Positions 38,220-43,872 of a stretch of DNA of 50,166 bases are shown piece by piece. Origin of the DNA: Burkholderiales bacterium (GTDB lineage: Bacteria > Pseudomonadota > Gammaproteobacteria > Burkholderiales > SG8-41); contig JBKJMN010000094.1 in NCBI GenBank assembly GCA_046596405.1, positions 1 through 50,166 on the forward strand, written 5' to 3'. The translations under genes were made by a program, and so were the position numbers. Below the pieces are notes generated by a model. The model did not search any database and had not been told where the DNA came from. It saw only the letters and a program-made list of their open reading frames with translations. How positions within the stretch are numbered: position 1 is the first letter of the stretch; every line of letters starts with the position of its first letter.

Positions 38220-39372
38220 GCGCGCGGGGCGCCCGCGCACGATCGCGATCGTCGCGGGCGAGGCGTCCGGCGACCTGCTCGGCAGTGAACTCATCCTTGC
38301 ATTGCGCGAACTCGTACCTGACCTGAACGTCGTGGGCATCGGCGGCCCGCGCATGGAAGCGGCCGGCATGCAGGTCTGGTTTCCGCTCGAAAAGCTCGCC
38401 GTGCGCGGCTACTTCGAGGTACTGCGGCATTACTTCGAGATCGTCGGCATCCGGCGCAAGCTGCGCCGGCGGCTGCTCAAGAACCGGCCGGACCTTTTCA
38501 TCGGCATCGACGCGCCGGATTTCAACCTCGAGCTGGAGCGTGGCCTGAAGGCGCGCGGCATTCCGACCGCGCATTACGTGAGTCCCGCGATTTGGATGTG
38601 GCGCCGCGAGCGGCTGCGCAAGATCAAGCGCGCGGTCACCAAGATGCTGACGCTGTTTCCGTTCGAAGAAGACCTCTACCGCGAGGCGGGCGTCGACGTC
38701 GCGTTCGTCGGCCATCCGCTTGCCGACATGCTCGACCGGGTGCCGCGCGACGACGCGGCGCGCGAACAATTGAAGCTGCCGCCCGCGGCGCCCGTCATCG
38801 CATTGCTGCCCGGTAGCCGGCAAAGCGAACTCCAGTACATGGCAGATCTCTTTATTCAGACCGCGAAGGTGATCCACACGCGGCTGCCGAACGCGGTGTT
38901 TCTGGTGCCGCTGACCACCCGCGAAACGCGGGCCATGTTCGAAACCGCGCTTTACCACAACGCAGCCGAAGACCTGCCGCTGACCATCATGTTCGGTCAT
39001 GCGCAGGATGCGATGGCCGCCGCCGACGTAGTGCTCGTCGCGTCGGGGACCGCGACCTTGGAAGCAGCGCTTTTGTGCAAACCCATGGTCATCACGTACA
39101 AGATGCCGCGCGCGACCTACTGGCTGCTGCAGGGCAAGGGCTACCTGCCGTATTACGGATTGCCGAACATTCTCGCGCGCGAGTTCGTCGTGCCCGAACT
39201 GATCCAGGATGACGCGACGCCCGCGAACCTGGGTCAGGCACTGCTCAATCTGCTCGGCGACGTCGCGACCCGCGAGCGCATTGCCGCCCGGTTTGCCGCC
39301 ATGAATGCAAGCCTGCATCGGGGGGCGGCGCATCAGGCGGCGCTCGCGGTGCTGCCGCTGTTGCCGAATTGA
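38203..39372 (+). CDS. lpxB: Lipid-A-disaccharide synthase
   Basis: [51 protein letters not shown]. Start approximate (GTG 38203). Confidence 0.95.
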
Positions 39373-39374
39373 AC

Positions 39375-39938
39375 ATGCGCTGCGGGGTCGACGAAGCCGG
39401 ACGCGGACCGCTCGCCGGGCCGGTGTTTGCCGCGGCGGTCATCCTTGGCAAGGGCCACGGCATCAAAGGCCTCGCCGATTCGAAGTCGATCAGCGCGGCG
39501 CGGCGCGATGAGCTGGCAGTCGAGATCCGGAGTTGCGCTGTCGCCTGGGCGGTCGCCAGCGCGACGGTCGAGGAAATCGACGCGCTGAACATCCTCCAGG
39601 CGACCTTGCTCGCGATGCGGCGGGCGGTCGAAGCGCTTGCCAGATCACCAAGCGAAGTGCTGGTCGACGGCCTTTATTGTCCGCGGATCGTGCAGCCTTC
39701 GCGTGCGATCGTGCGCGGCGACGCGCTGATCGCGGAGATCTCCGCGGCTTCAATACTGGCAAAAACGGCGCGTGATGCAGTCATGGTCGCGCTGCATGCG
39801 CAATACCCGGCCTATGGATTCGACCGCCACAAGGGATACGGCACCGCCCGACATCTCGACGCGTTGCGCGTACACGGCGCTTGCGGCGTGCACCGGCGGT
39901 CATTCGCGCCGGTGCGTTGGCTGCTCGAAAACGAGTGA
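39375..39938 (+). CDS. rnhB: Ribonuclease HII
   Basis: [45 protein letters not shown] 39369 is an alternative start. Confidence 0.97.
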
Positions 39939-39945
39939 CCGGCTC

Positions 39946-40896
39946 CTAGGCCTCGAATTCCCGCAGCAGTGAGCGCAGGGCGTTTTTTTCGCGGCCGGGA
40001 CGCGTCAACTCCCGGCGCGCGTCACATTGGCGCTTGAGCCGGGCATAAAATTCAGGCTCGGATTCGGCGCGCCACAGCAGGCGCGCCAACGCGCGCTCGT
40101 CGCCGAGGGGAAAATAGCCCGCGTAATCCCGGCCGAGCATGCCGACGTTGCCCGGCACGCGCGACGCGATCACCGGCACGCGCGCCGCCAGCGCCTCGGT
40201 GACGACGTTGGCGCCGCCTTCCATGTGCGAGCTGATCACCATCAAGCGCGCCCGCGCGAGGCGGCCGAGCGCCGCGCCGTGCGGCAGTTCACCGATCCAG
40301 CGATAGCGCGGCTCGCGGCGCATCCACCGCTGCGCCGCTTGTTTCATGGCCCCGTTCATTGCGCCGCCGACCTGCACCGCGCAAATGCGGCTTCTCGCCG
40401 GCAGATAGCGCAGTCCGGCGGCGAGCCTGAACGGGTCTTTCACTGCGCGCAGGTGGCCGCTGACGCAGACTTCGAACCGTGACTTGAGCGCCGCCGGTTT
40501 TGCGCGCGGCATGGTCGATTGATAAATCACGCGCGTCTTGCGCCGCAGGCGCGGCGCCAGCTCAGCGCGCCCTTCGTCCTGCAGAACGACCAGGCGGGTC
40601 GCGAGCTCGAGGGAAAGTTGCGCCTGGGCATTCACGCGGATGTCGGCATACAGATCGGTGCCCGTCAGCATCACGATCAGCGGCAAGCGGGGACACGCCG
40701 CCGCGAACCGCGCGATCGAGTCGTGGCTGCGTCGCGCGTGCAGTGCGATCATGAGATCCGCCGGCCTGCCGTCCCATTCCGTTGCCACGCGCACGCGATG
40801 CCCGAGGTCGCGCAGCAGCGCCGCCCAGCGCATCGCCGTGTTGCGGTTGCCGGAGTGCGCGACGGGCCGCGCGGGCGTGATGAGTGCGATTTTCAT
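39946..40896 (-). CDS. senB: Selenosugar synthase SenB-like glycosyltransferase (TIGR04348-type, GT-B)
   Basis: Family-typical segments: ITP......GN..TA.RW, MIALHARRS, LTGTDLY, LVVLQ, GHLR..KDP, SHMEGGANV, PVIASRVPGNVGMLG.DYAGYF. Adjacent to an EgtB-like gene. Confidence 0.85.
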   Translation of the reverse strand: MKIALITPARPVAHSGNRNTAMRWAALLRDLGHRVRVATEWDGRPADLMIALHARRSHDSIARFAAACPRLPLIVMLTGTDLYADIRVNAQAQLSLELATRLVVLQDEGRAELAPRLRRKTRVIYQSTMPRAKPAALKSRFEVCVSGHLRAVKDPFRLAAGLRYLPARSRICAVQVGGAMNGAMKQAAQRWMRREPRYRWIGELPHGAALGRLARARLMVISSHMEGGANVVTEALAARVPVIASRVPGNVGMLGRDYAGYFPLGDERALARLLWRAESEPEFYARLKRQCDARRELTRPGREKNALRSLLREFEA

Positions 40897-40910
40897 GCGT
40901 GCCGATCAGC

Positions 40911-40946
40911 TAGAATGACGCCATGCGTGCAGCGCAAACTATAGCA
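40911..40946. promoter_or_regulatory. Overlapping -10 elements for senA (+) and senB (-)
   Basis: Plus strand: TAGAAT at 40911-40916, 6 nt before the senA ATG. Minus strand: TG-C-TATAGT (40946-40938), 41 nt upstream of the senB ATG. Confidence 0.45.
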
Positions 40947-42263
40947 GAGAGCCGGCAGCGCAGATTGACGTCCGCGTCGTCCGCGCAGACCTTGGCGCAC
41001 CGCTTGCGCGAGGCGCGAGCGCGCACGCTGATGCTCGCCGCCGATTTGACCGGCGAGCAGCTGCTCGGCCCCGTACTGACTAGCGTGAACCCGCCGCTAT
41101 GGGAAATCGCCCACCTCGGCTGGTTCCAGGAATACTGGTGCCTGCGCTATCGTCACGAGAACGACTTTGCGCCTTCGCTGGTCGACGCGGCCGATGCGCT
41201 TTACGACTCGGCGCGCGTGCCTCACGCAACGCGCTGGACGCTACCGCTGCTGCCGTTCGATGCGGTGCTGCGTTTCACCGGCGACGTGCTCGAGCGGGTA
41301 ATCGAGAGGTTGCAGCGTGAGCCGGAGAATGCAGCGCTGCGCTATTTCGCGGAGCTCGCGGCAGCGCACGAAGAAATGCATTGCGAGGCGTTCACCTACA
41401 CGCGCCAGACGCTCGGCTATGCCGCGCCGCGCAGCCCCGCGGTGAATATTCCGTGCGGCGGCCCCTGGGCCGGCGACGTGGCGCTAACGGGCGGAGACTT
41501 TTTGCTCGGCGCGCCACCGGGAGACGGGTTCGTGTTCGACAACGAAAAGTGGCAGCATCCGGTCGCGCTCATGCCGTTCAATATCGCGCGCGCTGCGGTA
41601 ACCAACGGTGAATTTGCAGGATTTATCGAAGATAACGGGTATGCGCGGCGTGAATTATGGTCTGACGCGGGCTGGCAATGGCGCGCAAGCGTGGCTGCGC
41701 GGGCGCCCGTTTACTGGGTCAAGGCGGCCGGCGAATGGCGGCAGCGCGTCTACGCTGAAGTTGTCGCGATCCCGCCGCATGCGCCCGTCATGCATGTGAA
41801 CTGGTTCGAGGCCGATGCCTGGTGCCGCTGGGCGGGGCGCCGCTTGCCGGCCGAAGCCGAATGGGAAAAAGCGGCCGCCACGGGGAAAGACGCTGCGCGC
41901 AGCGCCGCCGACCAGCGGGTTTATCCGTGGGGCGCGGCGGCGCCGGATCTCGCGCATGCCAACCTGTACGGCGTGTGCGGTGCGGTCGCACCGGTATCCG
42001 CGTTCGCGGCCGGCGATAGCGCCCAAGGTTGCCGCCAGATGATCGGCAATGTCTGGGAATGGACGGCGGACTGGTTTGAGGCATACCCGGGCTTTGAGCG
42101 CGATCCTTATAAAGAATATTCCGCACCGTGGTTCGGGAACCATAAAGTGCTGCGCGGCGGCAGCTTCGCCACCAACGCTGCGCTGCTGCGCAATACCTGG
42201 CGCAACTTCTATACGCCCGACCGGCGCGACGTATTCGCCGGTTTTCGCACGTGCGCGGCATGA
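40923..42263 (+). CDS. senA: Selenoneine synthase SenA-like (EgtB family DinB + FGE-sulfatase domains)
   Basis: NPPLWEIAHLGWFQEYWCLR, LYDSARVPH..RW, non-heme iron motif HEEMHCE (HxxxHxE), FVFDNE, RRLPAEAEWE, GNVWEW, PYKEYS.PWF, LRGGS, RNFYTPDRRDVFAGFRTC. Divergent from senB. Confidence 0.85.
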   Translation: MRAAQTIAESRQRRLTSASSAQTLAHRLREARARTLMLAADLTGEQLLGPVLTSVNPPLWEIAHLGWFQEYWCLRYRHENDFAPSLVDAADALYDSARVPHATRWTLPLLPFDAVLRFTGDVLERVIERLQREPENAALRYFAELAAAHEEMHCEAFTYTRQTLGYAAPRSPAVNIPCGGPWAGDVALTGGDFLLGAPPGDGFVFDNEKWQHPVALMPFNIARAAVTNGEFAGFIEDNGYARRELWSDAGWQWRASVAARAPVYWVKAAGEWRQRVYAEVVAIPPHAPVMHVNWFEADAWCRWAGRRLPAEAEWEKAAATGKDAARSAADQRVYPWGAAAPDLAHANLYGVCGAVAPVSAFAAGDSAQGCRQMIGNVWEWTADWFEAYPGFERDPYKEYSAPWFGNHKVLRGGSFATNAALLRNTWRNFYTPDRRDVFAGFRTCAA

Positions 42264-43054
42264 GGCGGATCGTCTCCGCTGACAACGCGCGGTTCAAGGC
42301 TTTGCTCAAGCTCGCGGAATCATCGCGCGAGCGAAAAAAGCACGGCTTGTCGCTGCTCGACGGCACGCATCTGATCGCGGCCTATCACGCGCATGTCGGG
42401 GTGCCCGTCGAACTCGTCATCAGCGACAGCGGCTCGTCCAATCCCGAAGTGCAGGGACTCGTCGCGGCGATGGCGCCGCTCGCGCCGCTGCTGCTCGCCG
42501 ATGCGCTGTTTAGCCGGCTGTCGACCGTCGCGACTCCGACCGGGGTGCTGGCGACCGTCAAGACGCCGCGCCCGCCGGTCGTTCCCAAGAGCATAATCGC
42601 GTGCGTGATGCTGGAGGACATTCAGGATCCGGGCAATCTGGGGTCCGTGCTGCGCTCGGCGGCGGCAGCCGGGATCCAGCACGTTTTCCTGTCGACGTCG
42701 TCGGTGCAGGCCTGGTCGCCGCGCGTATTGCGGGCCGGCATGGGCGCGCATTTCATGCTGCAGATTCACGAGCAGTGCGATTTAAATGTGCTCGCGCGAG
42801 AGTTCAAGGGGCGCGTGATCGCGACCAGCCCGTGCGCGGCAACGACGGTTTTCGACGCCGACCTCGGGGGACCGGTGGCGCTCCTGTTCGGCAATGAAGG
42901 CGCGGGCGTGTCGCCTGAGCTCATGGCGGCCGCACATGAAACCGTCGCGATACCGATGCCGGGAGCTGCCGAATCGCTGAATATCGCGGCAGCGGCGGCG
43001 GTGTGCTTGTTCGAGCGCGTGCGCCAGCTCAAGGCGGGCCGCGCCCGTCAGTAG
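42260..43054 (+). CDS. TrmH/SpoU family RNA methyltransferase
   Basis: I.S.DN..FK, IQDPGNLGSVLRSA, LRAGMGAHF, GNEGAG, IPMPG..ESLN; ATGA overlap with the senA stop. Confidence 0.93.
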   Translation: MRRIVSADNARFKALLKLAESSRERKKHGLSLLDGTHLIAAYHAHVGVPVELVISDSGSSNPEVQGLVAAMAPLAPLLLADALFSRLSTVATPTGVLATVKTPRPPVVPKSIIACVMLEDIQDPGNLGSVLRSAAAAGIQHVFLSTSSVQAWSPRVLRAGMGAHFMLQIHEQCDLNVLAREFKGRVIATSPCAATTVFDADLGGPVALLFGNEGAGVSPELMAAAHETVAIPMPGAAESLNIAAAAAVCLFERVRQLKAGRARQ

Positions 43055-43872
43055 ACGCGGCGCACGAGTTTCGCCTGCTGCAATATCGTGGTCGCGAGCT
43101 CTTCGACCGACTTGGTGGTTACATCGAGATAAGGGATGCCTTCCTGGCGCATCAGCGCTTCGGCTTCGCGCACCTCGAATTCGCAGTTGGCGCGCGTCGC
43201 GTAAGTGCTGCCGGGCCGGCGCTCGTTGCGTATTTTCTCGAGCCGGTCGGGTTTGATCGTCAGGCCGTAAAGCCGCTTGCGTAAAGCCTTGACCTGGCCC
43301 GGCAACTGCATACTGGCGAAATCCTCGGGGACCAGCGGATAGTTGGCCGCGCGAATGCCGAATTGCATTGCGAGATACAGGCAGGTCGGCGTCTTGCCGC
43401 AGCGCGAGACCCCGACCAGGATCACGTCGGCTTCCGCCAGATCGCGCGTCGCGACGCCGTCGTCGTGGCTCAGCGAATAATTCACCGCCTCGATGCGGTG
43501 ATGATAGTTGGCGAAATCATTGGCGCTGTGCGAGCGCCCGACCGCATGCGAGGCGAGTACGCCGAGCTCCTTCTCCATCGGCAGGATAAAAATGTCGAAA
43601 CAGTCGAGGAAGAGCGCATTGGCTTTCGCGACCACGCTGGAGACGTCCTGATTGACGAGCGTGCTGAAAATCAGCGGACGCGTGCCGTCGGTCGCCCCCT
43701 GGTCGTTGATCTGGTTGACCGCGGCGTCCGCCTTCTCGATCGTATCGACGAACGGCAGCGTGACTTCGTTGAACGACACCATCTCGAACTGCGTGAGCAG
43801 GCTGTGGCCGAGCATCTCGGCGGTGATGCCGGTGCGGTCGGAAATGAAGAAAGCTGAGCGCTTTTGCGGCAT
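43048..43872 (-). CDS. ppsR: PEP synthase regulatory kinase/pyrophosphorylase
   Basis: FFISDRTGITAE, RIEAVNY...HDDG, GVSRCGKTPT, AANYPL; divergent from ppsA. Confidence 0.95.
   Translation of the reverse strand: MPQKRSAFFISDRTGITAEMLGHSLLTQFEMVSFNEVTLPFVDTIEKADAAVNQINDQGATDGTRPLIFSTLVNQDVSSVVAKANALFLDCFDIFILPMEKELGVLASHAVGRSHSANDFANYHHRIEAVNYSLSHDDGVATRDLAEADVILVGVSRCGKTPTCLYLAMQFGIRAANYPLVPEDFASMQLPGQVKALRKRLYGLTIKPDRLEKIRNERRPGSTYATRANCEFEVREAEALMRQEGIPYLDVTTKSVEELATTILQQAKLVRRVY

Follow-up and report, generated by a model that had tools for sequence, protein, structure and literature searches.

The window analysed here is the whole 50,166-nucleotide stretch of contig JBKJMN010000094.1 from a Burkholderiales bacterium (assembly GCA_046596405.1), and our subject is a divergent pair of genes within it, senB and senA. 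From the list of open reading frames (ORFs) and from profile matches, senB (39946..40896, minus strand) was assigned as a selenosugar synthase, a GT-B glycosyltransferase of 316 aa, and senA (40923..42263, plus strand) as a non-haem-iron selenoxide (selenoneine) synthase of 446 aa in a 'long-loop' form; their start codons face each other across a gap of 26 bp (40897..40922). We conclude, with a probability of about 0.85, that the pair belongs to the ordinary, known selenoneine pathway with its genes scattered over the genome, senB and senA lying here and selD and egtD elsewhere, and that selenoneine would be the product. An earlier note on this DNA had described both ORFs at exactly these coordinates, head-to-head with the same gap, and the motifs that it listed are all present in the translations (LHARRS, TGTD, HLRAVKDP, and EGGANV in senB; NPPLWEIAHLGWFQE and HEEMHCE in senA).

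The first ORF is SenB, as the earlier note had proposed. It passed the NCBIfam model TIGR04348 with 422.4 bits (cut-off 300, E=8.8e-127) over model positions 1-309 of 310, and carries the Pfam domain Glycos_transf_1 (a GT1-type glycosyltransferase domain); its second-best NCBIfam family reached 111 bits against a cut-off of 400. This locus alone exceeded the TIGR04348 cut-off in the genome, the next match scoring 40.3 bits, and none of 14 control genomes reached the cut-off of SenB or of SenA. The protein aligned at 230 bits with the structures of Variovorax paradoxus SenB (8jjn, 8jjq, and 8fbx). Compared with 8jjn it keeps N17, T20, H53, T78, Q126, R150, K153, L204, H206, and E226-G227-G228, where K153 is the counterpart of the catalytic Lys158 (residue positions of SenB and SenA were counted by hand from the alignments). 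The protein is predicted to act as a Se-glycosyltransferase with selenophosphate.

The second ORF is SenA, of the type that uses hercynine, with an activity that we predict from its residues. It scored 493 bits on the NCBIfam model NF041186 (cut-off 420, E=7.5e-148) and combines the Pfam domains DinB_2 and FGE-sulfatase; like that of SenB, this match goes well beyond what chance would give. The iron triad H64/H149/H153 and the catalytic Y396 align with H71/H167/H171 and Y363 of V. paradoxus SenA, and the selenosugar contacts N56/E61/R104 correspond to N63/E68/R120 of that enzyme (PMC11237966). An alignment to the EgtB structure 4x8b placed H101 and Y430 at the positions of the thiol-binding R87 and D416, and the replacement of EgtB Arg87 and Asp416 by His and Phe/Tyr has been described as a signature of SenA (Kayrouz et al. 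2022, bioRxiv 10.1101/2022.04.13.486033). An ordinary EgtB making ergothioneine beside an unrelated GT4 glycosyltransferase would be compatible with the 340.5 bits that senA still reaches on the EgtB model TIGR03440, and with a genome that has egtD yet no other EgtB. We regard it as extremely unlikely, given that this score lies under the cut-off of 360, that both thiol-binding residues are exchanged, that the glycosyltransferase is over the SenB cut-off with its next family far below threshold, and that senB and senA are paired in 30 of 30 loci of related genomes (see below). The earlier note's description of an EgtB-like non-haem iron enzyme of the SenA type therefore stands.

We compared the active site with those of other proteins in an alignment of 124 sequences: the window SenA, the 93 of 150 library representatives with a length of 370-480 aa, and 30 proteins whose locus context is known. 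At 12 sites the window SenA reads NEHHRHHYYNFY, which is also the string of SenAs in full senA-senB-selD(-egtD) clusters; EgtB-I proteins read SDHRRHHYYNWD and two OvsA-like rows NEHHRHHYMQAY.

The partner genes were found elsewhere in the genome, a binned assembly of 5.13 Mb in 468 contigs (estimated 97.8% complete, 3.7% contamination) in which the window is contig C135. Profile searches gave no match for selD or egtD on the window, in agreement with the earlier note. A selD gene lies at the extreme end of contig C144 (C144:3-446, locus L001; 202 bits over model positions 1-140), the only one over its cut-off in the genome and divergent from mnmH/selU (494 bits). With its TGA read as selenocysteine (Sec), the translation has FSHGGGUGCKLPP near the start, and the GGGUGCK motif marks it as a selenocysteine-type SelD. 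A stand-alone egtD is located on contig C323 (C323:6883-7776; 386 bits, cut-off 290.9), flanked by a D-Ala-D-Ala endopeptidase gene on one side and an ORF with no NCBIfam match on the other, and selA and selB are both on contig C192. No canonical EgtB exceeded its cut-off in the genome, where senA is the sole full-length EgtB-like gene; SenA is therefore the only predicted user of hercynine. The genome search suggested in the earlier note (selD, selAB/selC, selU, and egtD) thus recovered selD, selA, selB, mnmH/selU, and egtD, and its idea that selenophosphate is borrowed from a distant SelD agrees with the selD beside mnmH on C144. Its further idea of a variant pathway, to be expected if selD or egtD were missing, loses its ground, as both genes are in the genome and the residue set of SenA is complete for selenosugar and hercynine.

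Several observations weigh against this reading, and they are best considered together with the explanations that they would favour. The assembled SelD comprises only the first 148 residues and stops at the contig end (tblastn with a relative's SelD), and the C-terminal half was not found in the assembly by tblastn with that relative's SelD carrying X at the Sec codon. The contigs with selD and egtD are short (4.7 and 13.9 kb) in a bin of which an estimated 3.7% is contamination. ARAGORN predicted 38 tRNAs in the 468 contigs and none for Sec, and the top matches to Rfam RF01852 (44.8 and 43.6 bits, threshold 47) are tRNA-Ser; given the fragmented assembly, this failure to find tRNA-Sec does not show that it is absent. 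Finally, a search of sequencing runs for the locus returned 11 DNA-type metagenome runs and no RNA run. A decaying or silent remnant that yields no product in this organism would fit the incomplete selD and the missing tRNA-Sec, and also one relative with senB in two pieces. We consider such decay very improbable, since both ORFs are intact with complete catalytic residues, senA and senB are conserved in 33 of 37 family genomes along with selD and egtD, and the break in selD coincides exactly with the contig end.

Two further points concern the family of the second gene. Ranked against solved structures, the window SenA matched best the engineered OvsA-YNF (8ux5, 286.6 bits), then wild-type OvsA (276.7 bits), and third the EgtB of M. 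thermoresistibile (263 bits), whereas V. paradoxus SenA followed below these with 255 bits in two stretches. In addition, a protein with the OvsA motif, encoded by a genome of a related order member (G040, contig C6), scored 427.1 bits on the SenA model and so passed its cut-off of 420. Both would favour an enzyme of the OvsA type, with C5 of free histidine as the site of selenylation, as in an ovoselenol-like pathway. V. paradoxus SenA ranks lower because it has no counterpart of residues 321-374, which OvsA and EgtB keep. Because the SenA hidden Markov model (HMM) admits the OvsA-motif protein, it cannot by itself split SenA from OvsA; a three-residue motif does. At these positions the window SenA has the hercynine contacts Y399/N428/F429 (Tyr366/Asn395/Phe396 in V. 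paradoxus), not M401/Q430/A431 of OvsA, and OvsA mutated at the same three residues to Y/N/F switches from histidine C5 to hercynine C2 (PMC11030361). The YNF mutant also outscores the wild type, egtD is in the genome, and no OvsM-like or OvoA-C-terminal methyltransferase (TIGR04345-type) was found there (best match 23.3 bits, cut-off 170). We therefore give hardly any credence to an OvsA-type second gene. As for the OvsA-motif protein itself (G040:C6:41488-42777, locus L058), this NHISS gene with the M/Q/A motif would probably be misnamed as SenA by automatic annotation. Its genome has two NHISS genes, the other encoding a SenA as part of a complete egtD-senA-senB-selD cluster.

The remaining points concern the fine structure of the two enzymes. 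The window SenA contains a segment of about 54 residues (321-374) without counterpart in the crystallised Variovorax enzyme, which is the sole characterised SenA, and three contacts of SenB are changed relative to V. paradoxus (R22 to N19, T214 to A209, and H235 to N230), of which H235 is a main-chain contact in the V. paradoxus protein (PMC11237966). Both differences could point to variant chemistry, in which a senC-less pair with a long-loop SenA uses another selenosugar or thiosugar donor, or another acceptor, and does not make plain selenoneine. The genomic context adds to this: among the loci of known context, an adjacent selD was absent for 20 of 21 long-loop SenAs and present for 8 of 9 short-loop SenAs, a pattern among related genomes and not a statistical test. 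We nevertheless judge variant chemistry quite unlikely. SenAs of full clusters have identical residues at all 12 active-site positions, OvsA carries the loop as well and uses SeGlcNAc, the genome encodes both selD and egtD, and the long-loop SenAs do not form one clade.

The last argument rests on the SenA tree. After removal of the 18 of 124 rows in which the iron triad or the catalytic Tyr was missing, 106 remained, of which 39 had the SenA motif with the long loop (321-374 kept), 36 the SenA motif with a short loop, 11 were EgtB-I, 2 OvsA-like, and 18 had other motifs. The largest short-loop group was a clade of 24 rows (support 96), and long-loop rows were scattered in the tree; the window SenA sits in a wholly long-loop clade of 13 rows from loci in rnhB context (support 87). 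The tree is midpoint-rooted with a poorly resolved backbone (42 of 103 inner branches open), and we drew from it neither an order of events nor a donor. Because the long-loop rows are scattered and EgtB and OvsA also keep the loop, the long loop appears to be ancestral rather than newly specialised, a polarity that would be read from this poorly resolved, midpoint-rooted tree. What is mildly new is the long-loop SenA as an uncharacterised structural form, a natural counterpart of the engineered OvsA-YNF.

Taken as an ordinary selenoneine pathway, the scattered genes would work together as follows. SenB would couple selenophosphate to a UDP-sugar, giving a selenosugar (characterised SenB uses UDP-GlcNAc), and SenA would join the selenosugar oxidatively to C2 of hercynine, after which the selenoxide would collapse to selenoneine. 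Selenophosphate would come from the single Sec-type selD paired with mnmH/selU, which would also serve the synthesis of Sec and selenouridine, and hercynine from the stand-alone egtD. The senB-senA module would have entered the junction of rnhB and a trmH-like gene, where most of the family inherited it, with transcription from overlapping back-to-back promoters and the trmH-like gene riding on senA.

The closest known system is the sen cluster (senA-senB-senC) of V. paradoxus DSM 30034, whose pathway was reconstituted in vitro (Kayrouz et al., bioRxiv 10.1101/2022.04.13.486033) and for which structures are available (8jjn, 8fbx, 8ryz, and 8k5i; PMC11237966). The two enzyme families are the same, as are the catalytic and substrate residues of SenA, and SenB keeps the catalytic Lys and most contacts. 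Like in most published sen clusters, egtD lies away from the locus (Kayrouz et al., bioRxiv 10.1101/2022.04.13.486033). Unlike V. paradoxus, the window has no senC/selD on its 50-kb contig, the sole selD being of Sec type, by mnmH, and on another contig, and its senB and senA point away from each other instead of running in the same direction as selD. The window proteins also differ from those of V. paradoxus in the retained segment of SenA, where the alignment breaks into two stretches, and in the three contact residues of SenB. As defined in Kayrouz 2022, a sen cluster holds an egtB homologue, tigr04348, and selD within 5 kb; with no selD on C135, the window locus falls outside this definition and is a senAB pair, in a genome that has all parts of the pathway.

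Two other enzymes resemble the window SenA. OvsA of Halomonas utahensis and its YNF mutant (8u41, 8u42, and 8ux5; PMC11030361) are of the same length class and have the same loop, and OvsA, like the SenA pathway, uses a selenosugar made by SenB (PMC11030361). Wild-type OvsA has M401/Q430/A431 and acts at histidine C5, whereas the window SenA has Y/N/F like SenA and the hercynine-C2 YNF mutant; unlike in OvsA systems, no OvsM-like methyltransferase was found in its genome. The type I EgtB of M. thermoresistibile (4x8b/4x8d, 263 bits) shares with the window SenA the DinB and FGE folds, the three-His iron site, the catalytic Tyr, the N and the aromatic residue that bind hercynine, and a loop of similar length. 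It differs in that R87/D416 are H101/Y430 and S43/D48 are N56/E61 in the window SenA, which is under the EgtB model cut-off.

The distribution of the pair was examined in 61 genomes, comprising that of the window, 28 from its genus, 8 from other genera of the family, and 24 from other families of the order (the unpublished genome G034 is within these counts, and no claim is made on it alone). SenA was over its cut-off in 42 of the 61, including 33 of the 37 family genomes, and egtD in 41 of these 42. In only four SenA genomes, all outside the family, was selD within 5 kb of senA (G040, G043, G049, and G050); in 35 it was elsewhere, on another contig or, in G059, 250 kb off, and in three of the 42 (76-85% complete) it was not found. 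An in-frame TGA was present in the selD of the window's genome and of each of the 34 family relatives that yielded a selD, and selD was divergent beside mnmH in 3 of 3 family relatives examined. The layout with senB and senA away from selD is thus the norm in this bacterial family. The earlier note had taken the architecture to be novel, a view that these counts do not bear out; it had also held that the novelty would drop if selD and egtD were present elsewhere and the layout common, and this is what we found.

In all 30 best SenA loci senB lay divergent beside senA (one at a contig end, one in two pieces). The locus in two pieces, in G021 (L038:468-1410), has its senB match split into residues 1-262 and 264-314 a few bases apart, possibly by a frameshift or an assembly error. 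The trmH-like gene was directly 3' of senA in 22 of the 30 loci, and rnhB was seen upstream of senB in 15 (1.5-kb flanks). In wider regions from two further families of the order, the pair occupies the same neighbourhood, flanked by rnhB on one side and by the trmH-like gene (G056) or ppsR (G051) on the other. The eight loci without a trmH-like gene downstream came from G050, where selD is 3' of senA, and from seven genomes of the same genus, which carry a more distant senB-senA pair (51-57% identity) at another site, among genes for TctC-type (TctC/Bug) binding proteins and hydrolases. No selenium-related or mobile genes were found beside these second-site loci in G023 and G002. In the same two genomes the rnhB-trmH site is empty, the trmH-like gene following rnhB after 8 and 17 nt, respectively. 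From the empty sites and the second-site pairs we infer that the pair behaves as a two-gene module inserted at the rnhB-trmH junction. In G049 (locus L054:7258-11679), a selD-mnmH pair directly adjoins senA-senB, so that both divergent pairs, on separate contigs in the window's genome, are joined.

The presence of the pair at at least two chromosomal sites within one genus also bears on a broader proposal: senB-senA, with a long-loop, OvsA-like SenA, might be a movable, self-contained module able to draw on whichever housekeeping SelD a genome has. In that case, genomes like this one, with egtD and no EgtB, would make selenoneine as their sole thio/seleno-imidazole, and the long-loop enzyme might prefer other selenosugars or be regulated differently through the conserved element of the promoter region. 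We hold this proposal to be unlikely.

In the window, the left flank is rnhB (RNase HII; 39369..39938, plus strand; NF000596, 264 bits, cut-off 251), which stops 7 bp before the end of senB. The right flank is a gene for an RNA methyltransferase of the SpoU/TrmH family (42251..43054, plus strand), here called trmH-like; its NCBIfam matches were all below their cut-offs, the top one being RlmB TIGR00186 with 92.2 bits. Its start overlaps the senA stop by 13 bp if read from GTG 42251, or by 4 bp (ATGA) from ATG 42260. With these flanks and the empty sites known in the same genus, the earlier note's placement of the pair as an insertion in the rnhB-trmH block is borne out. The contig otherwise has housekeeping content, with dnaX, smc, ligA, rpsB-tsf-frr, bamA, lpxD-fabZ-lpxA-lpxB, and rnhB upstream of the pair, and the SpoU/TrmH-family methyltransferase, ppsR, ppsA, pyrG, and kdsA downstream. 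A Pfam scan of 31 other window ORFs detected no integrase or transposase and only housekeeping families, with 5 of the 31 giving no match, in line with the earlier statement that mobility genes are lacking. Around the insertion, a search for flanking repeats or att-like sites returned only short GC-rich matches that look like chance. The claim of a host-like base composition holds only roughly: the GC contents of senB (69.2%) and senA (65.7%) are above those of the window (62.8%) and the genome (62.3%), and the neighbours rnhB (66.3%) and trmH-like (66.9%) are likewise high.

To look at the promoter region we aligned the start regions of 22 loci. The 26-bp gap holds a -10-like TAGAAT (40911-40916), 6 nt before the senA ATG, and all 13 genus-level loci of the rnhB context have TA(G/A)AAT-N6-ATG. 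A second conserved element, ACTATAGCAGAG (40938..40949), resembles on its minus strand (TGCTATAGT) an extended -10 box directed towards senB. It is kept in the 22 aligned loci, with substitutions in more distant genera. Here it lies within the first senA codons; in other genera it is upstream of the senA start, and it is therefore conserved as DNA and not as codons. Together these features suggest that 40897-40965 contains overlapping back-to-back promoters, possibly with a leaderless senA mRNA. A sigma-70 consensus scan gave no sites in 39300-43200. Two candidates for a shared signal were rejected. The ACTATAGCAGA element, considered as a common operator of senBA, egtD, and selD, has a single copy in the genome, and neither egtD nor selD/mnmH is preceded by it; a direct repeat between selD and mnmH in the window's genome has no conserved counterpart in relatives. 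Because the trmH-like gene overlaps the senA stop here and abuts rnhB at empty sites, this housekeeping gene has probably been captured into the senA transcript.

A phylum-wide sample showed the opposite proportions. SenB was present in 10 of 400 other genomes, and 9 of these 10 had a SelD homologue within about 10 kb. The exception, G282, has a SenA 53% identical to that of the window, the highest among the six phylum-sample loci with a nearby SenA. Four genomes of the sample (G287, G317, and G166, loci L068, L069, and L073; G377, L065) have senB beside a SelD homologue and no SenA-like gene within about 10 kb, and in the first three this SelD homologue is divergent (33-36% identity). Such loci may be selenosugar-only or split.

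Published counts point the same way as our survey of the order and imply that many senB genes have no neighbouring selD: TIGR04348 genes number 2,353 and three-gene clusters 827 (Kayrouz et al., bioRxiv 10.1101/2022.04.13.486033), and NHISS neighbourhoods include senB in 8.1% of cases and senC in 6.3%. A full-text literature search found only counts and no paper treating senA-senB pairs without senC as such, although the supplements of the 2022 and 2024 papers, which were outside the search, may show them. Selenoneine producers are undercounted when they are identified by three-gene senABC clusters: almost all genomes of this bacterial family combine senA, senB, and egtD with a distant selD of the Sec type. 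SenA and OvsA are to be told apart by the three-residue motif and not by the HMM alone. The long-loop form of SenA is readily testable, and none of these results alters the known chemistry.

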